IMG/VR virus record: IMGVR_UViG_2563366988_000007
Coordinates: 1-40,587 of that record
From: a virus
Taxonomy: Duplodnaviria > Heunggongvirae > Uroviricota > Caudoviricetes
Length of the DNA stretch: 40,587 bases
Reading direction: 5' to 3' (one strand)
Shown here: piece after piece, positions 1-39,142 of the stretch
Numbering within the stretch: position 1 is the stretch's first letter
How the letters are laid out: each line of letters starts with the position of its first letter
Translations under genes and position numbers: made by a program
The notes under the pieces: model-generated
Told to the model about the DNA's origin: nothing
Seen by the model: the letters and a program-made list of their open reading frames with translations, nothing else
The model's database searches: none

Positions 1-516
1 ATGAAATTTAAAAAATGTCTTCTGCCTGTGGCAATGTTAGCGTCATTCACTCTGGCAGGATGCCAGTCAAATGCTGATGATCATGCCGCCGATGTTTATC
101 AAACCGATCAACTGAATACCAAACAAGAAACTAAAACCGTTAATATTATTTCCATTCTTCCCGCAAAAGTTGCCGTAGACAACTCCCAAAATAAACGGAA
201 CGCACAAGCCTTCGGCGCGCTTATTGGTGCAGTCGCTGGCGGTGTAATCGGCCACAACGTGGGGTCTGGCAGCAATTCCGGAACGACGGCAGGTGCAGTT
301 GGCGGCGGAGCTGTTGGCGCGGCAGCGGGTTCTATGGTGAATGATAAAACCTTAGTGGAAGGTGTTTCTTTAACGTATAAGGAAGGCACCAAAGTGTATA
401 CCTCCACCCAGGTGGGTAAAGAGTGCCAGTTTACGACAGGTTTAGCCGTTGTTATTACCACGACGTATAACGAAACGCGTATTCAGCCAAATACGAAATG
501 TCCTGAAAAGAGCTAA
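1..516 (+). CDS. Lipoprotein with glycine-zipper segment (YcfJ-like); host gene or prophage cargo
   Basis: Signal peptide with lipobox LAGC; Gly/Ala zipper GAVAGGVIGHNVG; ATG at window position 1. Confidence 0.6.
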   Translation: MKFKKCLLPVAMLASFTLAGCQSNADDHAADVYQTDQLNTKQETKTVNIISILPAKVAVDNSQNKRNAQAFGALIGAVAGGVIGHNVGSGSNSGTTAGAVGGGAVGAAAGSMVNDKTLVEGVSLTYKEGTKVYTSTQVGKECQFTTGLAVVITTTYNETRIQPNTKCPEKS

Positions 517-531
517 TGATCAGGAGGAGTC

Positions 532-1071
532 ATGAAGAAAGTTTTTCTTTGCGCCATCTTAGCCTCCTTAAGCTATCCGGCTATCGCCTCATCATTGCAG
601 GATCAACTCTCGGCTGTCGCAGAAGCGGAACAGCAAGGTAAAAATGAAGAGCAAAGGCAGCATGACGAATGGGTCGCGGAGCGCAACAGGGAAATCCAGC
701 AAGAGAAGCAACGTCGCGCAAACGCCCAGGCCGCGGCTAATAAAAGAGCGGCAACGGCAGCGGCGAATAAGAAAGCTCGTCAGGATAAACTGGACGCCGA
801 AGCCACTGCGGACAAAAAACGCGATCAAAGTTATGAAGATGAGCTACGCAGCTTAGAGATTCAGAAACAAAAACTGGCGCTGGCGAAAGAAGAAGCCCGC
901 GTCAAGCGCGAAAACGAATTTATCGATCAGGAACTGAAGCACAAAGCTGCGCAAACCGATGTGGTGCAATCTGAAGCTGACGCAAACAGAAATATGACTG
1001 AAGGCGGTCGCGATCTGATGAAAAGCGTGGGCAAAGCAGAAGAGAACAAATCGGACAGCTGGTTTAACTAA
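532..1071 (+). CDS. Secreted coiled-coil protein, charged K/E/R/A/Q-rich, unknown function
   Basis: N-terminal signal peptide (MKKVFLCAILASLSYPAIA); SD aggagg 8 nt upstream; same operon as 1-516. Confidence 0.55.
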   Translation: MKKVFLCAILASLSYPAIASSLQDQLSAVAEAEQQGKNEEQRQHDEWVAERNREIQQEKQRRANAQAAANKRAATAAANKKARQDKLDAEATADKKRDQSYEDELRSLEIQKQKLALAKEEARVKRENEFIDQELKHKAAQTDVVQSEADANRNMTEGGRDLMKSVGKAEENKSDSWFN

Positions 1072-6617: not shown

Positions 6618-6632
6618 TTACCTTTCAGGTAA
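6618..6632. promoter_or_regulatory. Operator-like palindrome TTACC-N5-GGTAA (ttacctttcaggtaa)
   Basis: Perfect 5+5 inverted repeat; identical 15-mer at 25228. Confidence 0.5.
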
Positions 6633-6669: not shown

Positions 6670-6689
6670 TACTGTATAAATATACAGTT
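6670..6689. promoter_or_regulatory. LexA box (SOS box) tACTGTataaatatACAGtt
   Basis: CTGT-N8(AT-rich)-ACAG matches LexA consensus; 20 nt upstream of SD/ATG of 6709 gene. Confidence 0.7.
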
Positions 6690-6708: not shown

Positions 6709-6966
6709 ATGCAGCAGTATCACTATCCACTGGAAGACGGATTTACCGAAAGGATTCACACGCCGGGAGGCGTCAGGTCACTGGTGGAGGGATCGCACTT
6801 GATGAAATTACTCCGGGATCTCGATAAGGATGGATTTAATGTCGATGGCCCACTTGCCGAACTGACTGCACTGATTAACTACGTCACCAGCTCACAGATG
6901 TCTATGCGGGATCTGCAAACACATCTCGACTATTGTGCCGAACAATTACGAAAACAAACCAGATAA
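6709..6966 (+). CDS. Small SOS-regulated protein, candidate antirepressor (Tum-like logic); paralogous to C-terminal domain of adjacent Bro-N protein
   Basis: GGAG SD 8 nt upstream of ATG; LexA box in promoter; shared motifs HTPGGV/HSPSGV, AEL, RDLQTH/RDIQTH with 7282-7977 C-terminus. Confidence 0.55.
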   Translation: MQQYHYPLEDGFTERIHTPGGVRSLVEGSHLMKLLRDLDKDGFNVDGPLAELTALINYVTSSQMSMRDLQTHLDYCAEQLRKQTR

Positions 6967-7104
6967 GGTTTGCAATTACCAAGTGGAGTGCTTATATTTA
7001 CCTTTGAGATAAATTTACATCGCACTCCTCTTGTGCCATAGTAATCGGGCACTGGCAAAATCCAGTGCCGGGATTGGCGTCCCGGATTACTAAAAGGCGC
7101 ATTC

Positions 7105-7124
7105 ACCGCGCAAGCGGTTTTTTT
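7105..7124 (+). terminator. Intrinsic terminator (accgc-gcaa-gcggt plus T7)
   Basis: caccgcgcaagcggttttttt. Confidence 0.5.
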
Positions 7125-7281
7125 ATGCGTATAGCACGGCCACATTCGTATTATGGTGGGCTGTGTGGGGGCACCGAAAGGTGCGCCGGGTCCTTTTAGC
7201 CGGTTACGCCAACCCTGCACAGTTCACCACCAACCGATTGGCGTCGGTAGTGGTGATTAACCAGACTAAAAGGTAACCACT

Positions 7282-7977
7282 ATGACAGCTACAAAAAGCA
7301 CGTCCATTTTTTCTTTCGAATCCCAAGCCGATATACGGGTAATCGTCATTAATGGTGAGCCATGGTTTATCGCTTCAGATGTTTGTCGGGCTATAGGCAT
7401 AGCAAACCATCGAGATGCTGTTCGAAAACTTGATGATGATGAGAAGGGCGTCGCTTCAACCGACACCCCTGGCGGTGAGCAAGAATCGATCATCATCTCC
7501 GAGTCAGGCCTCTACACACTGATCCTCCGCTGCCGCGACGCAGTGACACCAGGCACTATCCCCTACCGCTTTCGTAAATGGGTTACAGGTGAGGTTCTTC
7601 CTCAGATCCGCCGCACCGGAAGCTACATTAAAAACTCGCTCCCGCAGGAAGAACGCATAAAGATGGTTGCCGACCAGGTAGCCAACGCCACGGCGTCAGC
7701 AGTAATGCAGGCGATGAAGATAGAGAACAAAACCTACAGCGCCCCGCTGAAGCCCGGCTACCGCAGCCTGATTCACTCGCCGTCTGGTGTTCTCGGCCTG
7801 ACGGAAAACTCACTGCTGATGAATCTGCTGAACCAGTTACAGGACGACGGGCACGACGTATCGGGCGCGGCGGCGGAGCTGACCACCATGTTCTGCTACA
7901 TCGTCGGTGTGAGCAAATGCCTGCGTGATATCCAGACCCACGCGGAATACATCAACGACAAGGCAGGGTTCTTCTGA
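7282..7977 (+). CDS. Antirepressor, Bro-N domain protein with C-terminal domain shared with 6709-6966
   Basis: Bro-N signature IRVIVINGEPWFIASDVCRAIGI...SESGLYTLIL; SD aaaagg. Confidence 0.75.
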   Translation: MTATKSTSIFSFESQADIRVIVINGEPWFIASDVCRAIGIANHRDAVRKLDDDEKGVASTDTPGGEQESIIISESGLYTLILRCRDAVTPGTIPYRFRKWVTGEVLPQIRRTGSYIKNSLPQEERIKMVADQVANATASAVMQAMKIENKTYSAPLKPGYRSLIHSPSGVLGLTENSLLMNLLNQLQDDGHDVSGAAAELTTMFCYIVGVSKCLRDIQTHAEYINDKAGFF

Positions 7978-8021: not shown

Positions 8022-8050
8022 TTGCAGACTGTGGGTGAATAGCGTACTAT
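8022..8050 (+). promoter_or_regulatory. Putative sigma70 promoter (-35 TTGCAG, 17-bp spacer, -10 TACTAT) abutting operator palindrome
   Basis: Hexamers read directly; drives 8077 ORF. Confidence 0.35.
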
Positions 8051-8064
8051 TACCTTAAAGGTAA
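8050..8064. promoter_or_regulatory. Operator-like palindrome TTACC-N5-GGTAA (ttaccttaaaggtaa)
   Basis: Perfect inverted repeat immediately upstream of SD aaggagg. Confidence 0.5.
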
Positions 8065-8076
8065 AGGAGGCGCGAT

Positions 8077-8244
8077 ATGACAGCGTTGAAAAATCGTACT
8101 CAGCACAATGAACAAGCCAAGCAATGCTGGGATGTCATTGGAAAAGTTATGCTTGGCCGCGCAAGCAAAGAGCGCGACAAGGATATGGTTTACCAGACAG
8201 GAACATCTTTCAGCGACTTCAAGGCGGCATTTCGCTCCAAATAG
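8077..8244 (+). CDS. Small protein (55 aa), unknown function; not in ORF track (below length cutoff)
   Basis: Strong SD AAGGAGG 7 nt upstream of ATG; translation MTALKNRTQHNEQAKQCWDVIGKVMLGRASKERDKDMVYQTGTSFSDFKAAFRSK. Confidence 0.4.
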   Translation: MTALKNRTQHNEQAKQCWDVIGKVMLGRASKERDKDMVYQTGTSFSDFKAAFRSK

Positions 8245-25227: not shown

Positions 25228-25242
25228 TTACCTTTCAGGTAA
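25228..25242. promoter_or_regulatory. Operator-like palindrome TTACC-N5-GGTAA (ttacctttcaggtaa) preceded by TTGACA
   Basis: Identical to 6618 site; TTGACA at 25206-25211. Confidence 0.5.
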
Positions 25243-25564: not shown

Positions 25565-25641
25565 GTGGCATTAGCTCAGTTGGACAGAGCAACCGCCTTC
25601 TAAGCGGTTGGTCGCAGGTTCGAATCCTGCATGCCACGCCA
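25565..25641 (+). tRNA. tRNA-Arg, anticodon UCU
   Basis: Cloverleaf folded by hand: acceptor GTGGCAT/ATGCCAC, D-arm GCTC/GAGC, anticodon stem ACCGC/GCGGT with loop CTTCTAA, T-arm GCAGG-TTCGAAT-CCTGC, discriminator G, encoded CCA. Confidence 0.85.
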
Positions 25642-27780: not shown

Positions 27781-28373
27781 TGATTGCCATCCTGACGTTC
27801 TTTCAGTCTCTTCCTGGCTGCCGCTATGCGATCAGCAATTGTCACATTCACATTAACATCCAGGCGTTCTTTGAATGCGTTGACGTCGACGTGCTTACCA
27901 ATCAGTTCGAGGTTCTTCACCTTGTCAGGCCATTTAATTTTTTTGAGGATTGTCTCTATCGAATCCTCGTTCATGTTCATGATGGTCGATGACAGATCAA
28001 AGCCACTAAGCGTAGTGCGCCAGATTTTCGGCCACTCGCGGATTGGCTTAAGGCTCCCATCGTCGTTGAGGATGTCGATCACGTCCATCTGGTCGATCTC
28101 CACCAGGCGCATGAGAACGTAATCAGCACTGACGCGCATTCGTTTGTTGCGCTCTTCCATCAGCTCGGCAATCCGTTTTTGAATGCGTTCATCGCGCATC
28201 ATGAGACTGGCTTTAACTGCCGCTGTATTTGGGGAGAATCCTGCGTTAATCGCAGCCTGAGTCTGGTTTTCAGGCGTTTGGATGTATGACTGGCAATAAG
28301 CCTCCTGCATTGCTGTTAGTGGCTTAAATTGCGTTGATTTGCGTTTATAGGTTTTAGGTTCAGCAGGCATCAT
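27777..28373 (-). CDS. Terminase small subunit (start chosen at MMPAEP; ORF extends to 28451)
   Basis: HTH-like motif TQAAINAGFSPNTA typical of small terminases; overlaps TerL start. Confidence 0.65.
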   Translation of the reverse strand: MMPAEPKTYKRKSTQFKPLTAMQEAYCQSYIQTPENQTQAAINAGFSPNTAAVKASLMMRDERIQKRIAELMEERNKRMRVSADYVLMRLVEIDQMDVIDILNDDGSLKPIREWPKIWRTTLSGFDLSSTIMNMNEDSIETILKKIKWPDKVKNLELIGKHVDVNAFKERLDVNVNVTIADRIAAARKRLKERQDGNQ

Positions 28374-28447
28374 AACCACCGTGGTAATAGTTACCGTTGT
28401 GGTAATAGTACCATGCAAAATAAAGCCGCCATAGTTGGCGGCAGTAT

Positions 28448-28669: not shown

Positions 28670-28681
28670 GTGACATGTCAC
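28670..28681. repeat. 12-bp perfect palindrome GTGACATGTCAC (copy 3 of 3)
   Basis: Exact; immediately 5-prime of SD of 28448-28660 gene. Confidence 0.6.
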
Positions 28682-29019
28682 ACTATTAATTTCGTTTCAT
28701 GCCAGCCTTTAGTCACCCAGCATTGCGAGTCACCATTACACGGGCATGAATTAACGGGAACTCTCTCGCCGCACTTACCGCAAAGTTTTCTGCTGATCGA
28801 TTTTATACGCCCGCGCACACGTGCATCATCCTGGCGGATCAGCAGCGCGATGTACTCGGCCATTTCATAGGGATCGTGACCAGGGCGCCGGGCGGCGCAG
28901 TTCCGCGCCAGCATTTCCTGCTCCTGCTTATCCAGAACCAGTTCAATTTTGCGCTCACCGGCGGCGGACTGCCGAGCGCGCTGCGCGGCTTTGCGCTCTG
29001 CTGCTGATTTAGCCATCAA
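28678..29019 (-). CDS. Hypothetical protein with C-terminal Cys cluster (possible zinc-binding regulator)
   Basis: CGKCG...CPCNGDSQC motif; basic N-terminus. Confidence 0.4.
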   Translation of the reverse strand: MMAKSAAERKAAQRARQSAAGERKIELVLDKQEQEMLARNCAARRPGHDPYEMAEYIALLIRQDDARVRGRIKSISRKLCGKCGERVPVNSCPCNGDSQCWVTKGWHETKLIV

Positions 29020-30540: not shown

Positions 30541-31038
30541 TCAGTCTCCTTTGATGCGAATGCCAGTGGTACTCATTCTCCTGATTTCCCAGAGCACACG
30601 AGGAACACCACCGTTTCCGACCGGATCGCGTTTACTCCGCAGGGCGACGCTTGATTCCGCCCAGCTTTTTCTTGGAGGAAGCTCTTTCACACGAACAAAA
30701 CCAGCTGCGCGAAGAGATGCTCCTGATTCATCTGCCTGGGTGTACGTAATACAACGTTGATAACCCATAGCCTTTGCTGCCCGCCAGACAGCACCATAAA
30801 GCGCGCTGTTAGCGTTGCGTTCTCCTGTGGTACATGTGCGATTTACTTCAAGCGTTAATCCATCGTCCAAATGTCGTGCAACAGGTCTACCGGCTGTCGC
30901 CACACCTATCAATTCTCCGGCATCATTTCTCAGACCAATGCTGAATTTATGCCCCACCGGGGGTTTATTGTGTCGGTGATGTCTGGATATAAACGCCTTC
31001 GCAACACGAAGAGTAACCGGTGAAATCTGCACTCTCAC
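30541..31038 (-). CDS. Conserved phage protein, unknown function (GTG start)
   Basis: 165-aa ORF; shares duplicated 3-prime end GIRIKGD with upstream neighbour. Confidence 0.45.
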   Translation of the reverse strand: MRVQISPVTLRVAKAFISRHHRHNKPPVGHKFSIGLRNDAGELIGVATAGRPVARHLDDGLTLEVNRTCTTGERNANSALYGAVWRAAKAMGYQRCITYTQADESGASLRAAGFVRVKELPPRKSWAESSVALRSKRDPVGNGGVPRVLWEIRRMSTTGIRIKGD

Positions 31039-32447: not shown

Positions 32448-32462
32448 TTACCCCTTAGGTAA
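32448..32462. promoter_or_regulatory. Operator-like palindrome TTACC-N5-GGTAA (ttaccccttaggtaa)
   Basis: Perfect inverted repeat 4 nt upstream of start codon of 32097-32444. Confidence 0.45.
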
Positions 32463-32509
32463 TTAAAAACCACATAAGACACGAAATCAATAGATTTTAG
32501 AATATTTTA

Positions 32510-32524
32510 TTACCTCTAAGGTAA
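32510..32524. promoter_or_regulatory. Operator-like palindrome TTACC-N5-GGTAA (ttacctctaaggtaa)
   Basis: Perfect inverted repeat downstream of P gene. Confidence 0.45.
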
Positions 32525-32561: not shown

Positions 32562-33344
32562 TTACTTGATAAATCCTGACGCCTTTCCCCGCCTGTATTC
32601 CTCCATCAGCCACTGCGCCGGTGTTATTCCCCCAAGGGTGGCGGCGTTAGGCATGCACCCGAAACTTCGCCCTGGTGGATGGTAAACGTCTCTCCCTGTG
32701 TCCGGAGGCGTACTCATGGGTTCTGGCTTTGCCTGTATGCTGATCACCGGATCGGGTATCTGCTGTCCGGAAGCCACCTTTTTCGCCCAATCATCGAGCA
32801 GCCTGCGCGCGTGTTTCTCAACCTCAATCTCGCTAAGCTGGCGCTGATACATTGCACGGCGGGTATCACATACGACCCAGTACATAACCGGATGTCGCCA
32901 CGGGAATCTTTCGGGACCACCAGGATATAAACTTTTTTCCTTGCTGTACCGGTGAAACTCCGCCATCACATCGTCAATGGTGACGCCAAGAACCATCTTG
33001 CTGTCTTTACACCACTTGATGAATTGCCCTGGCGACGGCCAGAACGGAGACTCACTGGCGCGGGCGTGGCGCATACCAGCGTTAACCTGTTCCATTGTTG
33101 TGATCCCATTCTCCAGAAACGCAAGCATCCATTGTTTTCGAAATTCGTTTAGCTTTCCTTGCTCGCTGATAGCAGCGATGCTGCCTGGAAATGCAGCCTG
33201 TAACTGGACAAACATTTCGTTGAAAATTCTTGCAACCTGCTCCTTCTTTGCCCTTTCATCGTCAGCAGAAGCAACCGCCGTCGAGTGGTCATGCCCACCA
33301 CGAAAGCGATCGTACTCATTAAGAAGTTCTGGAGTTGATTTCAT
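32562..33344 (-). CDS. P: Replication protein P (lambda P-like helicase loader)
   Basis: WMLAFLENGITTMEQVNAGMRHAR and PFWPSPGQFIKWC match lambda P as recalled; start at MKSTPE with GAGGTG SD. Confidence 0.8.
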   Translation of the reverse strand: MKSTPELLNEYDRFRGGHDHSTAVASADDERAKKEQVARIFNEMFVQLQAAFPGSIAAISEQGKLNEFRKQWMLAFLENGITTMEQVNAGMRHARASESPFWPSPGQFIKWCKDSKMVLGVTIDDVMAEFHRYSKEKSLYPGGPERFPWRHPVMYWVVCDTRRAMYQRQLSEIEVEKHARRLLDDWAKKVASGQQIPDPVISIQAKPEPMSTPPDTGRDVYHPPGRSFGCMPNAATLGGITPAQWLMEEYRRGKASGFIK

Positions 33345-34152
33345 CCCACACCTCATCTATCCAGTCAGTGTTATGCCAGTCAAGGCTCTTTCTGACTTCA
33401 CCTGATTTCTGTCTACAGAACTGGATGCGCCTTGCCAGCTTCTGCTCCCACTGTGCCTGATGGTATGCCTTACCCTCAGCCATCCAGTAAATTCTGAACT
33501 CTGCAAGTTCCTGTGCCGTTGGCAGACTGTCCAGGTAGATTCCCTGCAATGAGCTTTTCCGAAGAAAGTCATCTGATGGCTGCCATTGTTCATGCATGAC
33601 AAATTTGCCTAATTGCCCTGGCCCACCAGGAGGAACAAAGTTATTCATCACGGCGTTGTTTGCGCCGGGGTCATGAGGCACAGAATCCCCGGTTTTTGTC
33701 CTGCTCTCCCTCTCTTGGTTAAATGACTGGTTATATGACTGGTTCTGGATCCCGTTTTTGGGATCATTCAACATCCCGTTTTTGGGATCATTCAACATCC
33801 CGTTTTTGGGTATATTCCCGTTTTCGGTAACATTACCGTTTTCGGGTTCATTGCCCCCCTCCCGGTTGCCTTTAATGTTCCCGTTTTTGGTTATATTAAG
33901 AGAGAAAACCCGCACTCTTTTTGTCGCTCCCTTTCTCTCTCCGGTATCTGAAATAAGCCCCATTTTCATGAGCGATATAAGCCCGGCCTGCACGGTTTTT
34001 TTATTCAGGCAAGTGTCTTTAACGAGGCGTTCTATGCTGGGGTAGCAGAGGTTATATTCATCGGCTCTGTCAGCCATCGAGAGCAGTATGAGCTTTAATG
34101 ATGAGCTACCTGGATCTGTCTCCCAGGCCCAATCTGTTGCATGTCTGCTCAT
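33319..34152 (-). CDS. Replication initiator (O-like) with iteron origin inside coding sequence
   Basis: N-terminal winged-helix-like domain; Asn/Gly repeat linker encoded by iterons; overlaps P start. Confidence 0.65.
   Translation of the reverse strand: MSRHATDWAWETDPGSSSLKLILLSMADRADEYNLCYPSIERLVKDTCLNKKTVQAGLISLMKMGLISDTGERKGATKRVRVFSLNITKNGNIKGNREGGNEPENGNVTENGNIPKNGMLNDPKNGMLNDPKNGIQNQSYNQSFNQERESRTKTGDSVPHDPGANNAVMNNFVPPGGPGQLGKFVMHEQWQPSDDFLRKSSLQGIYLDSLPTAQELAEFRIYWMAEGKAYHQAQWEQKLARRIQFCRQKSGEVRKSLDWHNTDWIDEVWDEINSRTS
33749..33898. repeat. Iteron-type replication origin: six copies of core CCGTTTT(T/C)GG, two as exact 24-bp tandem repeat
   Basis: atcccgtttttgggatcattcaac x2 exact, then degenerate copies at 19-24 bp spacing. 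Confidence 0.65.
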
Positions 34153-34167
34153 GATTAATCTCCGCTA

Positions 34168-34368
34168 TCAGCTTGAGTGTTGTGGGGAGGAATTAATCAT
34201 GATCTGCTTAATCTCTGCCCTGATGCGACGGTTTGATTCCATGGTGCACTCAACACAGTGTCCGTTGTAAACCCAGCGTTCACTGTCATGTCCATGCTTA
34301 CATGGTTTTCCGGTGTAGTAGCGTTTAAGTCCGCGCTTTGCGGCATCAATACGTGTAATGATTTCCAT
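34168..34368 (-). CDS. Small Cys/His-rich protein in CII position (start uncertain; ORF extends to 34431)
   Basis: MEIITRIDAAKRGLKRYYTGKPCKHGH...CVEC. Confidence 0.35.
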   Translation of the reverse strand: MEIITRIDAAKRGLKRYYTGKPCKHGHDSERWVYNGHCVECTMESNRRIRAEIKQIMINSSPQHSS

Positions 34369-34448
34369 GGTAAGCCCTGTTATTAGTATTGGGATTACGG
34401 TCATTTTGTGCTGACACAAAAAAAAGATCAACCAGATTTGGTTTTTTA

Positions 34449-34463
34449 TTACCTTTGAGGTAC
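34449..34463. promoter_or_regulatory. Operator-like palindrome, imperfect (ttacctttgaggtac)
   Basis: 4 of 5 match in right arm. Confidence 0.35.
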
Positions 34464-34471
34464 GAATAGAT

Positions 34472-34496
34472 ATGAAAAGACCGCCGGGTGGCGGTC
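34472..34496 (-). terminator. tR1-like intrinsic terminator downstream of cro (gaccgcc-gggt-ggcggtc then T-tract on minus strand)
   Basis: Read directly. Confidence 0.45.
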
Positions 34497-34518
34497 TACA
34501 GAGGGTTGTAGCTGGATA

Positions 34519-34749
34519 TCATGAGTAGAAGAAGTATGCCAGTTCTGCTTTTGAGCGCAGCCATTGTCTTGTTTTACAGGCTTTAAAAAGCCCATTCATC
34601 AATACCTTACCTGGCATTTTGCGCTTACCTGTTAAGTGAGTCTGGATATAGTGACTCGTCGTTCCGGCTTCCTGTGCGAAGGCTTCACGCTCATCCGGAG
34701 TAAGTGCAAGCCAGTGCTTTTTGAAATCGAAATGTCCGTTATCGCTCAT
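34519..34749 (-). CDS. Cro-like regulator (divergent from repressor)
   Basis: 76 aa, position divergent to repressor across operator cluster. Confidence 0.5.
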   Translation of the reverse strand: MSDNGHFDFKKHWLALTPDEREAFAQEAGTTSHYIQTHLTGKRKMPGKVLMNGLFKACKTRQWLRSKAELAYFFYS

Positions 34750-34785
34750 AGCTATTGCCTGATATTTATTTCAGATAATAAATAT

Positions 34786-34841
34786 TCACCCATAAGGTAA
34801 CAAAAATCAAGGATAGTTACCTACGGGGTGCATTTACCTGT
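34786..34841. promoter_or_regulatory. Immunity operator cluster: three overlapping TTACC-N5-GGTAA-type sites (34786-34800 imperfect, 34809-34823 half, 34827-34841 perfect)
   Basis: tcacccataaggtaa / ttacctacggggtgc / ttacctgttgggtaa between cro and repressor. Confidence 0.55.
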
Positions 34842-34903
34842 TGGGTAATATTGCTTTAAATTGAATCATCTACTGATTCATATATGAGGCGATTTTCCAG
34901 AAA

Positions 34904-35488
34904 ATGAAAAGTATCCAGGACGTCCGCAGGCAAAATCTCAACGACTTGATCGACCGTGAATTCAATGGTGTTCAGACGCGGATGGCAGAAAAACTTGGAA
35001 CTCAGGCAAATCTGGTAAACCGCTGGGCTCTTGGCAAGAAGGTTATCGGCGACCAGGTTGCGCGAAAAATTGAAGCTGCCGCCAATAAACCCCGTAACTG
35101 GCTTGATATCGATCGCTCGCTTTCTCAGGAAGGTTTTCAGCCTGTCGGCCCAAGCGACATTGGTCAGCTGGCGGCTCACAACCTGGAACGCTGGATGAGC
35201 GAAAGCCGCGACCTTTCAACACAGGGAAAACTTCACCGCGCATCCGGCGTCGCCCAGGTGACAATCAGCCGCCTGTTAAACAATGAGGTCAGCGTTTCCA
35301 TTTCCACCCTGGAGAATGTTGCATCCGCATTCGGGCGTCACGGCTATGAATTACTGATTCACCCGCACGACCCTGCGACTATCAACTATGACCGCTCGCG
35401 CTACGCATTGTTACCCGAAACAGAGAAGGCAAAGATCGAAAGTTACATTGAATTTGTCATCAGCCAGAACGAAAAAAACAAACAATAA
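34904..35488 (+). CDS. Immunity repressor, tandem HTH (XRE-type) domains, no LexA-like S24 autocleavage domain
   Basis: Two HTH-like segments (QTRMAEKLGTQANLVNRW and ASGVAQVTISRLLNNE); no GDSM/Ser-Lys peptidase motif. Confidence 0.7.
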   Translation: MKSIQDVRRQNLNDLIDREFNGVQTRMAEKLGTQANLVNRWALGKKVIGDQVARKIEAAANKPRNWLDIDRSLSQEGFQPVGPSDIGQLAAHNLERWMSESRDLSTQGKLHRASGVAQVTISRLLNNEVSVSISTLENVASAFGRHGYELLIHPHDPATINYDRSRYALLPETEKAKIESYIEFVISQNEKNKQ

Positions 35489-35508
35489 AATCATATTTTT
35501 CAGTAAGT

Positions 35509-35532
35509 AAGCCGCCTCATGGCGGCTTTTTT
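35509..35532 (+). terminator. Intrinsic terminator after repressor gene (aagccgcc-tcat-ggcggctt plus T6)
   Basis: Read directly. Confidence 0.55.
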
Positions 35533-35545
35533 ATTGCCAGCAAGA

Positions 35546-35622
35546 TTACCTTATGGGTAATTTTTTTAACTCATATCTATTGACATCAAACCAGATACGC
35601 ATAATCATTACCTCAACGGTAA
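35546..35622 (+). promoter_or_regulatory. Early promoter with two operator palindromes (35546-35560 ttaccttatgggtaa; 35608-35622 ttacctcaacggtaa) and -35 TTGACA at 35579
   Basis: Perfect palindromes flanking TTGACA; precedes early plus-strand operon. Confidence 0.5.
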
Positions 35623-35641
35623 CAGACCGAGGTAACAAATT

Positions 35642-35794
35642 ATGCAGTGGAAAATCATCAACGGTTGGTACTGCGTTACTGCATGCGGATTCATGAGCTG
35701 GAAGTTCCGCACCTTACAGGAAGGCATTAAGTGGGCTTTCGTCAGCAAAGAAGCTCGCGATGTGGCCAACGATAACGAGATATGGGAGGGCTGA
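35642..35794 (+). CDS. Small protein (50 aa), first gene of early plus-strand operon; not in ORF track
   Basis: GAGG SD 8 nt upstream; translation MQWKIINGWYCVTACGFMSWKFRTLQEGIKWAFVSKEARDVANDNEIWEG. Confidence 0.35.
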   Translation: MQWKIINGWYCVTACGFMSWKFRTLQEGIKWAFVSKEARDVANDNEIWEG

Positions 35795-35796
35795 TA

Positions 35797-36096
35797 ATGA
35801 ACGTTAATCAGCAGAAAAATCTTCAAAAAATCATGCAGGCATTCGACAAGGACTACCACCTGTCAGAACAGCTATATGACCGACAAGTTGAACTGATTGA
35901 GAGCATCCGACTTCATCAACTGTCATCAACTTTCGACGTTGTAACAGGCAAAGGCGTTCGTCAGGAAGTACTGGAGGCTGCTAAAGACAGCCCTGAGTTC
36001 GAAGAACTGATGGATGCCTATCGGCGAGAGGCAATGGCAATTATCGCCCGCTGGGATCTGGCGGATCAGCTTGATGGACAGAAGGACGCGGCATGA
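35797..36096 (+). CDS. Hypothetical protein upstream of exonuclease (possible recombination accessory/nuclease inhibitor)
   Basis: Start at MNVNQQ with GGGAGGG SD; acidic helical 99 aa. Confidence 0.45.
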   Translation: MNVNQQKNLQKIMQAFDKDYHLSEQLYDRQVELIESIRLHQLSSTFDVVTGKGVRQEVLEAAKDSPEFEELMDAYRREAMAIIARWDLADQLDGQKDAA

Positions 36097-36914
36097 AACC
36101 GGGAATTTATTTCGGCATCAGCAACGAAGACTACCACGCAGGTGACGGCGTGAGTAAGTCGCAACTGGACATGGTTGCCAAGAATCCGGCGCTTCTTAAA
36201 TGGGTTCAGGCAGCACCAGAAGACGAAGAGAAAAAGTCTGCATTGGATATGGGAACCGCATTGCACTGCCTGCTTCTGGAACCTGGAGAATTCGACAAAC
36301 GCTTCATCGTGTCACCGAAATTCGATCGTCGGACAAAACAAGGTAAAGCTGACGAAGAAGCATTTCTTCGTGATGTGGCGGATATGGGTATTACGGTACT
36401 TGATGTCGAGCAGTGGCGAAAACTTGAGCTCATGCGTGATAGCGCAATGGCTCATCCGGCGGCACGCTGGATGTTGGAAGCACCTGGTTACTGCGAAGCA
36501 TCAATGTACTGGAACGATGAAGAGACGGGTGAGTTGTGCCGAATTCGTCCAGACAAATGGCTGAACGAGCACAACGTGATCGTCGACGTGAAAAAGGTTG
36601 CAGATATGGACCGTTTTGCACGCCACATCGAGGAATTCCGCTACCACGTGCAGGACGCAATGTACCGCGAAGGCGCAACGAGGGTTACTGGTCAACCGCA
36701 TGGTTTTTTCTTTCTTGCCGTGAGCGAAAGCATTGATTGTGGTCGGTATCCGGTACGCGTGTTCGAGTTGGATGCGCCGGATGTCGATGCCGGGCACGCT
36801 CTGTTCCGCCGGGATCTGAATACCTATCACGAATGCCGCATAAATGATGAATGGGGCGGCGTGGAAATTATTAAACGCCCTGACTGGGCACGTAAACAGG
36901 ATATGTATGTATGA
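36093..36914 (+). CDS. RecE-like 5-prime to 3-prime exonuclease (PD-(D/E)XK nuclease domain only)
   Basis: GIYFGISNEDYHAG and downstream D...E.K-type motifs resembling RecE C-terminal domain; paired with annealing protein. Confidence 0.6.
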   Translation: MKPGIYFGISNEDYHAGDGVSKSQLDMVAKNPALLKWVQAAPEDEEKKSALDMGTALHCLLLEPGEFDKRFIVSPKFDRRTKQGKADEEAFLRDVADMGITVLDVEQWRKLELMRDSAMAHPAARWMLEAPGYCEASMYWNDEETGELCRIRPDKWLNEHNVIVDVKKVADMDRFARHIEEFRYHVQDAMYREGATRVTGQPHGFFFLAVSESIDCGRYPVRVFELDAPDVDAGHALFRRDLNTYHECRINDEWGGVEIIKRPDWARKQDMYV

Positions 36915-37841: not shown

Positions 37842-38090
37842 ATGAAAGGTGCATTAGGTAAGAAGGAACTCCTGGCGGTGGTGCCACTGTCATGGAGCAC
37901 TATCGACCGTATGGAGCGCGCAGGGGAATTTCCTAAACGCTGGTATATCACCGATAAACGCTGCGCATGGAACCGTGACGAAGTTGAGCGTTGGCTTGAT
38001 GAACGTCAGGCAGCAAGCCCGGCAGAGTTCCAGGGTAAAAAACCTCCTGTTCAGCAACGTGTATATCGTCCCGTGAGCAACGCTGCATGA
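37842..38090 (+). CDS. AlpA/Xis-type DNA-binding protein (excisionase candidate)
   Basis: 82 aa, AlpA-like motif near integrase. Confidence 0.55.
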   Translation: MKGALGKKELLAVVPLSWSTIDRMERAGEFPKRWYITDKRCAWNRDEVERWLDERQAASPAEFQGKKPPVQQRVYRPVSNAA

Positions 38091-38203
38091 GTGCGCTGCT
38101 AAGGCACTGGATCAAATGGTCAGGATGGTACTTATTCCTGGCCTCTGTTTCAGCATGGCTTTATCTGCTGGCATTAATTTTCAGAGAGGGTTGGATTAAG
38201 TGA
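38087..38203 (+). CDS. Small single-TM protein (38 aa), translationally coupled on both sides; not in ORF track
   Basis: ATGA overlap with xis stop and overlap with next GTG start; translation MSALLRHWIKWSGWYLFLASVSAWLYLLALIFREGWIK. Confidence 0.3.
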   Translation: MSALLRHWIKWSGWYLFLASVSAWLYLLALIFREGWIK

Positions 38204-38499
38204 GAAAGTTAAGCCGACTTGAAAAATACCACATGAATAAGGTTTCAATGCGCAGTCCGTCAAAGATTGTCGCCGTTACTCCTGCGGCGATAGAGATCGA
38301 AAAACGCGCGATTGAAAGAGAGAAAAAAGGGCAGTTCCGCATTGCCGCTCACCTTTGGCTTCAGTGTATGGATGTTGCTTCTGGTGATGTTGAACGTGCA
38401 AGGATCGCGGTTCGCAGGGACCAATGTATCACAAAAGGTAACGGCCTTCGCCGTGGCGACTATAGCGGCATAGGATGTTGTGGGGTGGTTTATGACTAA
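38200..38499 (+). CDS. PerC-like small regulator (tentative), GTG start
   Basis: Motif AHLWLQCMDVASGDVERARIAVRRDQC resembles PerC family as recalled. Confidence 0.4.
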   Translation: MRKLSRLEKYHMNKVSMRSPSKIVAVTPAAIEIEKRAIEREKKGQFRIAAHLWLQCMDVASGDVERARIAVRRDQCITKGNGLRRGDYSGIGCCGVVYD

Positions 38500-39142
38500 G
38501 AAATACACACTAATCTATGCAGATCCACCCTGGGTATACCGGGACAAAGCCGCAGATGGTAATCGCGGTGCCGGTTTTAAATATCCAGTTATGAGTGTGC
38601 TGGATATCTGCCGCCTTCCTGTGTGGGATTTGACCGCTGAAAACTGTCTGTTGGCCATGTGGTGGGTGCCAACACAACCACTCGAAGCACTAAAAGTTGT
38701 TGAAGCCTGGGGATTTCGTCTGATGACGATGAAGGGCTTCACGTGGATAAAATGTGGTAGTCGACAACCAGATAAACTGGTTATGGGTATGGGACACATG
38801 ACTCGCGCCAATAGTGAAGATTGCCTGTTTGCGGTAAAGGGAAAACTACCTACGCGCATTAATGCAGGGATCGTTCAGTCATTTACCGCACCGCGGCTTG
38901 AGCATTCAAGAAAGCCAGATATCGTTCGTGAAAAACTTGTGCAATTATTAGGCGATGTTTCTCGCATTGAACTGTTCGCCCGCCAGACGTCTCATGGCTT
39001 CGATGTTTGGGGTAATCAGTGCGAAGACCCGGCAGTGCAACTACACCCTGGATACGCGTTGGATATTGGCGGATTAACAAATGCATTCAGCAATGCTCCG
39101 CTGTCACCAACAGACATCCAGGGGCGGGAGCGTGCTGCATGA
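38480..39142 (+). CDS. DNA N6-adenine methyltransferase, MT-A70 family (orphan)
   Basis: YADPPW catalytic motif; no adjacent restriction gene. Confidence 0.8.
   Translation: MGWFMTKKYTLIYADPPWVYRDKAADGNRGAGFKYPVMSVLDICRLPVWDLTAENCLLAMWWVPTQPLEALKVVEAWGFRLMTMKGFTWIKCGSRQPDKLVMGMGHMTRANSEDCLFAVKGKLPTRINAGIVQSFTAPRLEHSRKPDIVREKLVQLLGDVSRIELFARQTSHGFDVWGNQCEDPAVQLHPGYALDIGGLTNAFSNAPLSPTDIQGRERAA

Follow-up and report, generated by a model that had tools for sequence, protein, structure and literature searches.

A phiV10-type immunity switch with dispersed predicted repressor operators in a Uetakevirus prophage

How lysogeny may be held and released by a repressor that carries two helix-turn-helix (HTH) segments and no peptidase domain, and whether the phage can then open its transcription units without antitermination, are the questions raised by this locus, which was analysed within a stretch of 40,587 nucleotides of viral DNA (the window). 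The prophage in the window is a phiV10-like Uetakevirus, its 1.5-kb switch is 98% identical to that of phiV10, and 562 of 5426 complete E. coli genomes contain the same switch DNA. The immunity switch claimed in the initial annotation was borne out, with all of its elements found in place, and the region is very probably the immC-type immunity switch of this phiV10-type prophage, operating like the Rep/Ant system of SPC32H.

This phiV10/epsilon15-type lysis–lysogeny switch is an ordinary one that has been described before, and there is nothing new in it here: the repressor fold, the antirepressor and the dispersed operators are already in the literature or GenBank for phiV10, epsilon15, SPC32H and ZX5, with the phiV10 record annotating a "repressor, two HTH motifs" and both flanking terminators, and the epsilon15 record marking dispersed repressor-binding sites. 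The discovery value is small, and what the analysis offers is annotation of a switch present in about one tenth of complete E. coli genomes, which could take over the operator map along with ant under its predicted LexA control and the second antirepressor under C4/isrK control. In those genomes the switch genes carry no labels beyond "helix-turn-helix domain-containing protein" or "hypothetical protein".

The repressor and its two HTH-type domains

The predicted layout of the repressor (Rep) comprises an N-terminal HTH DNA-binding domain, an HTH_3-like middle domain and a C-terminal strand and helix. All 194 residues are covered by homology to SPC32H Rep, with phmmer searches of the PDB returning 5D50_A (SPC32H Rep) at E 4.1e-42 across aa 1-190 and 5D4Z at E 4.2e-20 across aa 89-190, and the protein is 99.5% identical to phiV10 p40 and ZX5 ORF21. 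The AlphaFold model, which is all-helical save for short linkers, shows a pair of helical HTH-type domains with a helix at the C-terminus, and 5D50/5D4Z were its top PDB matches in Foldseek.

Autocleaving repressors of the CI/LexA-like type have a C-terminal S24 peptidase and an Ala-Gly (or Cys-Gly) cleavage site. The domain search of Rep that had been proposed found HTH_3 and, at E<=0.1 in Pfam, neither Peptidase_S24 nor any other peptidase family, and no S24 fold was present in the AlphaFold model or among the Foldseek matches. The C-terminal peptidase of lambda CI and LexA was thus not found in Rep, and the description of a repressor without a peptidase domain is sustained by Pfam, model and Foldseek alike.

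The description of Rep as a tandem-HTH protein stands for the fold and very probably fails for two DNA readers, given that the second domain dimerises in the solved homologue. A true tandem-HTH binder, in which both HTH-like domains would lie on DNA and a monomer would read a composite or extended operator, is very improbable, even though it is the second domain that has the stronger Pfam HTH match (HTH_3 at aa 106-147, E 1.2e-9, with LacI- and HTH_26-type matches over the same stretch) and that folds, in the model of aa 84-151, as a five-helix HTH_3 domain of the classical type, next to a weak YdaS/Cro-like HTH match at aa 21-61. Against it stand the operators, which are simple 15-17 bp palindromes that fit two identical readers, and the putative recognition-helix stretch NLVNRW of the N-terminal domain, which is common to the Rep of the window and SPC32H Rep. 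With N36, R40 and W41 invariant in the Rep family alignment, this agrees with the shared operator core. The two domains also have no detectable sequence similarity in a BLASTP comparison of aa 1-75 with aa 85-194.

According to PMC9986798, SPC32H Rep reads DNA through its N-terminal domain and dimerises through its middle domain, which is followed by a domain for tetramerisation and Ant binding, and the domain roles together with the binding of the tetramer in "trans" are summarised in PMC9638917 and PMC9986798. By this comparison, the second HTH-like segment of Rep appears to match the middle dimerisation domain of SPC32H Rep, and would not be a second DNA reader; because the two proteins are only ~42% identical, the oligomeric state and Ant sensitivity of Rep are extrapolated. 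An internal duplication as the origin of the two HTH domains was rejected, as BLASTP between the halves gave nothing.

Operators, promoters and antirepressors

The map of the switch (Table 1) is built on homology, motif statistics and the conservation of sites and of their geometry. A motif search of the window returned nine exact copies of TTACC-N5-GGTAA (0.03 expected), which is the core of the ATTACC-N5-GGTAAT palindromes characteristic of OR and PL in SPC32H-type switches. Both this core and the 62-bp operator pairs, including the spacing at PL, recur in eps15, SPC32H, phiV10 and Tyrion. A second palindrome, AACCA-N4-TGGTT, is also enriched (seven found, 1.3 expected) and often lies close to operators.

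Table 1. Features of the switch and of the transcription units under predicted Rep operators (window coordinates)
Feature	Position	Strand	Basis or context
Predicted operator near ant, exact	6618-6632	.	Between tailspike gene and ant
Near-consensus LexA box TACTGTATAAATATACAGTT, predicted	6670-6689	.	20 bp upstream of ant ATG
ant, 85-aa SPC32H-type antirepressor	6709-6966	+	PDB 5D50_E, phrog_450
Second antirepressor gene, Bro-N-Ant fusion	7282-7977		Downstream of isrK/C4 RNAs
Predicted operator, exact	8050-8064	.	12 bp upstream of 55-aa ORF (8077-8244), moron-like block
Predicted operator, exact	25228-25242	.	Upstream of gp3-like and portal (head) genes; eps15 equivalent annotated
terS-front element	28373-28442	-	Terminator 28442-28425, then extended -10-like TGGTACTAT, then two operators
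Q-position gene, 113-aa phrog_536 "transcriptional regulator"	28678-29019		Cys-rich C-terminus
Second PL-type cassette, predicted	32448-32524	-	Follows terminator after gene P; heads DUF1064/nin-like unit
Promoter-like TTGATC-17-CAAAAT	34403-34431	-	Ahead of gp42-like, O-like and P genes
Degenerate operator TTACCTTTGAGGTAC, 1 mismatch	34449-34463	.	Just downstream of post-cro hairpin
Hairpin, weak predicted intrinsic terminator	34497-34478	-	After cro-like gene; AGACCGCCACCCGGCGGTCT+TTTCATATCT
cro-like gene, 76-aa HTH protein	34519-34749	-	phrog_35 "transcriptional repressor", E 5.6e-13
PR-like promoter of cro-like gene	34775-34810	-	Consensus match alone; overlaps operator 34786-34800
OR, three predicted operators	34786-34800, 34817-34831, 34834-34848	.	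Between divergent cro-like gene and rep
rep, 194-aa prophage repressor	34904-35488	+	Pfam, phmmer vs PDB, structure model, Foldseek
Strong predicted intrinsic terminator	35509-35528	+	After rep; AAGCCGCCTCATGGCGGCTT+TTTTATTGCC; 8-bp GC stem, T6 tail
PL cassette, predicted	35546-35622	+	TTGACA-17-AATCAT between/overlapping two exact operators

At OR, the three overlapping palindromes that had been annotated proved to be three sites (34786 with one mismatch, 34817 with two, 34834 exact) that are adjacent, 31 and 17 bp apart from start to start, and overlap the divergent promoters instead of each other; their positions are kept in 7/7 Uetakevirus genomes aligned. The candidates for the PR-like promoter are TTGTTA-17-TATTAT (34803-34775) or the conserved TTGATT (34810-34805). 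The cro-like gene, which opens the rightward-type early unit, is the equivalent of phiV10 p41 and eps15 gp39, and its product had no match in Pfam.

On the other side of rep, the hairpin read earlier as a terminator was confirmed; it is annotated in phiV10 and retained in Tyrion and BUCT554, while the U-tract is missing in SPC32H and eps15 and the terminator is absent in Kp BUCT711. A permissive Rfam scan of 34000-36200 gave nothing above threshold, with sub-threshold chance matches on the terminator only. The early promoter with two operators that was said to follow directly is likewise there as a predicted PL, with its -35 (TTGACA) at 35580-35585 and its -10 (AATCAT) at 35603-35608, between a distal (35546-35560) and a proximal (35608-35622) operator that lie 62 bp apart.

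The same layout (distal operator, 27 bp, -35, 17 bp, and a -10 overlapping the proximal operator) is found in the cassette after gene P, with operators at 32510 and 32448, also 62 bp apart, around TTGATT-17-TTTAAT. The cassette after the cro-like gene is a degenerate copy of this type, in which the centre of the operator lies 25 bp from the -35-like hexamer and its right half-site GGTAAT is invariant in seven genomes; the promoter-like element is nearly invariant in five aligned genomes and readable in all seven, with a spacer of 16/17 nt, and is taken as a candidate promoter because its score of 8/12 is under the threshold of the scanner. A direct repeat shared with PL pointed to a plus-strand promoter at 34405-34450, which was rejected since its geometry is not that of a -35/-10 pair. 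Before terS, the two operators (28391, exact; 28373, one mismatch) abut the start codon in a site whose eps15 equivalent is annotated, and the extended -10 suggests a promoter.

The antirepressor gene ant sits 28 kb from the switch, and its product matches 5D50_E at E 1.4e-46, with 72/83 residues identical by the printed alignment count (~87%). A LexA box is also present upstream of the ant homologues of phiV10 and eps15, and the eps15 equivalent of the operator near ant is an annotated repressor-binding site. SPC32H Rep reportedly works without cleavage, with ant under LexA control, as Kim and Ryu are said to have described in 2013. The second antirepressor gene is preceded by two small RNAs, namely isrK (Rfam RF01394, 7049-7124, 77.9 bits against a gathering score of 50) and C4 (RF01695, 7149-7234, 77.7 bits against 45).

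In the close relative ZX5, no free phage was left when ORF21 was overexpressed and lysis-gene transcripts fell by ~99.97-99.99% (endolysin 99.99%, holin 99.97%), and overexpression of its Bro-N antirepressor lowered lysogeny (PMC9782041). These phenotypes and the SPC32H-type ant with its LexA box agree with the induction through an antirepressor that the initial annotation had supposed. Its further suggestion that regulation may be purely by repressor and antirepressor was not upheld, as LexA, the isrK/C4 RNAs and the Cro-like protein are also present, and putative regulators of the PerC, AlpA and phrog_536 types are encoded elsewhere in the window, the PerC-like gene at 38200-38499.

Given these elements, a mechanism may be proposed in which DNA binding, Ant action, LexA control, promoter activity and terminator strength are read from homologues or from the sequence. 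The N-terminal HTH domain of Rep would bind the 15-bp TTACC-N5-GGTAA operators, with dimers formed by the HTH_3-like middle domain and tetramers by the C-terminal domain; the three OR operators between rep and the cro-like gene lie over the divergent promoters. The strong terminator would close the rep transcript ahead of the leftward-type early promoter, bracketed by two operators whose 62-bp spacing would suit one Rep tetramer. Rep has no autocleavage domain, and DNA damage would clear LexA from the box ahead of ant, and Ant would then bind the C-terminal domain of Rep and release it from DNA. Rep operators are predicted beside promoter-like sequences ahead of the replication, post-P, packaging and head genes, and the loss of Rep could therefore open every unit directly, without antitermination of the N/Q type.

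Antitermination

The N protein of lambda is small, arginine-rich and encoded by the first PL gene, and nut sites (boxA/boxB) lie in the early leaders. The profile search for antiterminators proposed for the whole window was run on 39 ORFs with Pfam and/or PHROGs and returned no N or Q family, in keeping with the initial annotation, and no antiterminator family was matched by the ORFs scanned in the rightward early arm. The genes that come first after PL, of 50 and 99 aa, matched only PHROGs 898 and 856, of unknown function; since profiles are weak for N-like proteins, the missing match to the N family is not proof of absence. Matches to boxA were at chance level, with none in the early leaders (34400-34800 and 35600-35800), and a literature search on antitermination in Uetakevirus gave nothing relevant.

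The terminator after cro had been called tR1-like, of which the hairpin and its position hold, the likeness being positional only, with a weak U-tract that is lost in relatives. The hairpin is GC-rich (-14.5 kcal/mol), with a tail (UUUUCAUAUCU) of 4 U only, and is an annotated terminator in phiV10; it is kept in seven genomes, with the U-tract confined to the phiV10/Tyrion/BUCT554 clade and absent in the Salmonella and Klebsiella relatives. In these seven genomes, RNAalifold gave five pairs with one compensatory change, in a stem that is mostly conserved in sequence and across clades that align poorly.

In a logic like that of lambda, the hairpins that follow the cro-like gene and P and the one that precedes terS would be true regulatory terminators, overridden by an unrecognised antiterminator such as the phrog_536 protein at the Q position or a cis-acting put-like RNA. 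This is improbable, although three terminator-like hairpins do punctuate the rightward arm, only one gene separates that of the phrog_536 protein, with its Cys-rich C-terminus, from the late-operon terminator, sigma-70 matches ahead of terS and of the replication genes are weak, and N-like proteins, being small and divergent, may escape profile searches. It is opposed by the empty searches for antiterminator families, for boxA in the early leaders and for Rfam elements at threshold in 34000-36200, by the loss of the post-cro U-tract in relatives, by the phrog_536 protein having no Pfam or PDB relative, and by the Rep operator that each hairpin of the rightward arm has within 15-60 bp downstream, accompanied by a promoter-like sequence or, in front of terS, closely preceded by one.

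The promoters proposed beyond the hairpins are predictions at the level of consensus matches. Given the lack of N/Q matches and of boxA in the early leaders, and the operator and promoter-like sequence after each early-right terminator, a design free of antiterminators is plausible but unproven. That Uetakeviruses may have a lambda-ordered genome without any antitermination, in which Ant opens the early, replication and late units simultaneously, is proposed tentatively, at somewhat less than even chances. If no antitermination operates, a single Rep tetramer binding in "trans" would cover the conserved 62-bp operator pair, and timing would depend on promoter strength or on the putative regulators of the PerC, AlpA and phrog_536 types, which could be needed for late expression.

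Comparison with known systems

The closest systems are phiV10 (DQ126339) and vB_EcoP_ZX5 (MW722083), with 98% identical switch DNA and 99.5% identical repressors, from which the window differs by a few point substitutions within the switch; the phiV10 record carries no operator annotation. The Salmonella podophage SPC32H, whose switch was reportedly described by Kim and Ryu in 2013 and by Kim et al. in 2016 (PDB 5D50, 5D4Z), belongs to the same genus and has the same gene order, a full-length Rep homologue, an Ant ~87% identical, the LexA box before ant, the TTACC-N5-GGTAA core, a three-site OR and the 62-bp PL operator pair. It differs in the limited identity of Rep (~42%) and in the operator spacers, which are less A/T-rich in the window, and the window has in addition, downstream of the isrK/C4 RNAs, a Bro-N-Ant fusion as its second antirepressor. 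After rep and after the cro-like gene, the clade of the window has terminators with a canonical U-tract; these are missing in SPC32H and eps15.

The immunity region of lambda is alike in gene order and orientation, with a repressor divergent from cro over a three-site OR, a terminator after the repressor unit that is followed by an operator-controlled PL, and O/P-type replication genes downstream of cro. In contrast with lambda, the repressor of the window has no S24 autocleavage domain and induction would proceed by an antirepressor, N, Q, nut and boxA were not detected in the window, and operators are found at the replication, post-P and late units as well.

LexA-controlled antirepressor systems were reportedly described by Lemire et al. 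in 2011 for Gifsy-1/-3 and Fels-2, which share with the window a non-cleavable repressor inactivated by an SOS-induced antirepressor and differ in their repressor and antirepressor protein families, as set apart by PHROG names only. The C1 network and immI (c4 RNA-icd-ant) of P1 are similar in that a single repressor has numerous operators across the genome, and, as in the immI of P1/P7, a C4 antisense RNA (RF01695, 77.7 bits) was found upstream of an antirepressor gene. P1 C1 is nevertheless unrelated in sequence and acts as a monomer on asymmetric sites, whereas the operators of the window are palindromes for an oligomeric HTH protein.

The repressor and its operators

The switch comprises two divergent genes separated by a control region of 154 bp, of which rep encodes the prophage repressor (Rep) and the other, cro-like, encodes an HTH protein. 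On the 3' side of the cro-like gene come a small ORF rich in Cys and His, a replication initiator resembling DnaT/O, and a homologue of lambda P; two small ORFs, a PD-(D/E)XK exonuclease, and RecT lie 3' of rep. The O-like gene, 33319-34152(-), contains several direct repeats of CCGTTTT(T/C)GG plus approximately 10 bp, at about 33758-33900, which read in the protein as repeated NGN(I/V)...KNG motifs and look like origin iterons inside an initiator gene, as in lambda.

The initial annotation, in which the repressor has two HTH-like segments and no peptidase domain, proved correct. In Pfam, residues 106-147 match HTH_3 (E 1.2e-9) and residues 21-61 a YdaS/Cro-type HTH below threshold, with no peptidase match, while the PDB sequence search aligned residues 1-190 with the Rep repressor of the Salmonella phage SPC32H (5D50_A, E 4e-42) and residues 89-190 with the SPC32H Rep(92-198) tetramer (5D4Z). 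The AlphaFold model (28 homologues as input; mean pLDDT 78.5) has an N-terminal four-helix domain (residues 4-59) joined by a disordered linker to an HTH_3-type domain of five helices (84-151), and ends in a C-terminal segment with a long final helix (172-193). Its top Foldseek matches in the PDB are 5D50/5D4Z, followed by generic XRE/SinR/Stl/DdrO-type HTH domains, with no S24 fold among them. SPC32H Rep binds DNA through its N-terminal domain, dimerises through the middle one, and tetramerises through the C-terminal one, which also binds the antirepressor (PMC9986798); by homology to this layout, the second HTH-like segment would serve oligomerisation (dimerisation) and not the reading of DNA. 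No similarity is detectable between the two HTH-like domains; the N-terminal one shares the stretch NLVNRW with SPC32H Rep, and N36, R40, and W41 are invariant in the family alignment.

The Rep operator, TTACC-N5-GGTAA, occurs exactly nine times in 40.6 kb, against 0.03 expected, together with several one-mismatch copies. At OR, the cluster between rep and the cro-like gene, the three palindromes described as overlapping are indeed three, but they are adjacent; their positions are kept in seven Uetakevirus genomes, in which an invariant AAAAATCAA provides a putative -35 for the cro-side promoter. The arrangement reported 3' of rep, a terminator directly followed by the early promoter PL and two operators, is present as described. 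A second PL-type cassette, 3' of the post-P terminator, has its operators around TTGATT-17-TTTAAT, and in both cassettes (32448-32524 and 35546-35622) the distal operator lies 27 bp from the -35 hexamer. The 62-bp spacing of the PL pair recurs in epsilon15, SPC32H, phiV10, and Tyrion, and pairs with exactly this start-to-start distance are found at two promoters in each of the genomes covered (the window and these four), a spacing that a single Rep tetramer bound to both sites might explain. These four phages share an identical operator core, with Rep only about 42% identical between clades. Dispersed operators also occur, including two abutting copies placed between a terminator and the start codon of terS, which they touch, and the GenBank record of epsilon15 already labels the equivalent sites 'protein_bind: repressor'.

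Another palindrome, AACCA-N4-TGGTT, is found with its near copies seven times (1.3 expected), at positions including 6578, 6957, 25176, 34430, and, with two mismatches, 35589; in several cases a Rep operator is 6-40 bp away. A Cro-like protein or IHF might be its binding factor.

Regulatory features of the switch and of the loci connected with it
Feature	Position	Strand	Remarks
Single exact operator	6618		tailspike/ant intergenic region
ant	6709-6966	+	SPC32H-type antirepressor
Operator	6998		1 mismatch; upstream of Bro-N gene
isrK Hfq-binding RNA	7049-7124	+	Rfam, 77.9 bits, above gathering score
C4 antisense RNA	7149-7234	+	Rfam, 77.7 bits, above gathering score
Bro-N gene, 231 aa	7282-7977	+	Bro-N domain, residues 17-107
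Single exact operator	8050		before moron-like ORF
Single exact operator	25228		before head genes
Two abutting operators	28373-28405		at terS
phrog_536 'transcriptional regulator', 113 aa	28678-29019	-	Q-like position
Second-cassette operators	32448, 32510		62 bp apart
Degenerate operator	34449-34463		directly downstream of post-cro hairpin; right half GGTAAT invariant
Post-cro hairpin	34497-34478	-	-14.5 kcal/mol
cro-like HTH gene, 76 aa	34519-34749	-	divergent from rep
OR operator	34786		1 mismatch
OR operator	34817		2 mismatches
OR operator	34834		exact
rep, 194 aa	34904-35488	+	divergent from cro-like gene
Terminator 3' of rep	35509-35528		strong
PL distal operator	35546		exact
PL promoter	35580-35608		predicted; TTGACA-17-AATCAT
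PL proximal operator	35608		exact; overlaps last -10 base, runs downstream
AlpA-like protein	37842-38090		possible regulator
PerC-like protein	38200-38499		possible regulator

Antirepressors and induction

The cognate antirepressor gene, ant, lies 28 kb from the switch, and its product is identical to SPC32H Ant at 72 of 83 positions (5D50_E, E 1.4e-46). A near-consensus LexA box, TACTGTATAAATATACAGTT, is located 20 bases upstream of its start; phiV10 and epsilon15 have the box at the corresponding position. In SPC32H, Rep reportedly stays uncleaved during SOS and ant is repressed by LexA, while the Ant tetramer is said to bind the C-terminal domains of two Rep dimers, which are released from DNA. 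Secondary accounts agree (PMC9638917; bioRxiv 2025.11.27.690993). Rep is also 99.5% identical to ORF21 of Escherichia phage vB_EcoP_ZX5, the overexpression of which eliminated free phage and lowered transcripts of the endolysin gene by 99.99% and of the holin gene by 99.97%; a ZX5 antirepressor reduced lysogeny (PMC9782041).

The Bro-N protein, of the type assayed as ORF4 in ZX5, carries a C-terminal domain (residues 150-223) 43% identical to the small Ant (E 3e-16), and is probably a second antirepressor targeting the same Rep. The isrK and C4 RNA matches sit between the two genes, in a stretch that looks like an RNA-controlled antirepressor module of the P1/P7 immI or Gifsy-1 isrK-anrP kind. 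The earlier suggestion that regulation is purely by repressor and antirepressor holds as regards the antirepressor, but not as regards "purely", with LexA and two small RNAs as further layers of control.

Termination and antitermination

The hairpin 3' of the cro-like gene, which had been called tR1-like, is present and stable, but it has only UUUUCAUAUCU as a tail. A GC hairpin occupies the same position in seven of seven genomes, with minimal covariation, and in the Salmonella and Klebsiella phages its tail is UCCUUCCU-like, so that the hairpins there are not canonical intrinsic terminators. Directly downstream lies a promoter-like TTGATC-16/17-CAAAAT, nearly invariant across the genus. By inference, the replication genes are served by a separate promoter, weakly controlled by Rep, which would make it unnecessary to override the hairpin; the post-cro terminator is weak and probably bypassed by the downstream promoter.

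As first annotated, no N- or Q-like antiterminator was found: none of the 39 ORFs scanned with Pfam and/or PHROGs, which come from the two early arms, the surroundings of ant, and a set of accessory ORFs, matched N, Q, or another antitermination family. Words resembling boxA occur at chance frequency and in none of the early leaders, and Rfam gave nothing at threshold within the switch. The phrog_536 protein, with a basic N-terminus, a Cys-rich C-terminus, and no relatives in Pfam or PDB, is a candidate late regulator; its gene is next to last before the terminator and operators preceding terS. Given that this and the PerC-like and AlpA-like proteins are possible regulators, the phage may encode an unrecognised late factor. 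In an otherwise known system, the genus may nevertheless do without antitermination.

Accessory genes and relationship to known phages

A tRNA-Arg(tct) gene, 25565-25641(+), is located in non-coding DNA that separates the terminase from the head genes, and a Mom-like DNA modification protein (30541-31038(-); phrog_1384, E 4e-42) is encoded in the rightward early arm. In the leftward arm, ORF 38480-39142(+) corresponds, by position alone, to the putative adenine methylase gene (p33) of phiV10. Beyond the lysis genes, 1-1071(+) holds two ORFs that are probably lysogenic-conversion morons, a glycine-zipper/TraT-like protein (1-516), whose PHROGs name 'DNA methyltransferase' is unsupported by Pfam matches, and a DUF5384 protein (532-1071).

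By megablast, 34300-35800 is 97.5-98.7% identical to phiV10 and approximately 15 relatives and 76-78% identical to the Enterobacter phages Tyrion and BUCT554; the same 1.5 kb is present in 562 of 5426 complete E. coli genomes, nearly always at 95-99% identity, and repressors of this family are widespread among prophages of Enterobacteriaceae. In the GenBank record of phiV10, the repressor is already entered as 'putative transcriptional repressor; two helix-turn-helix motifs (PF01381)', and rho-independent terminators are marked 3' of it and of the cro-position gene. The gene order is the same as that of lambda (PL operon, repressor, OR, cro, O, P), and the initial interpretation, which holds in substance, describes a system that was already known: among SPC32H-type Rep/Ant switches, this is the one of phiV10.
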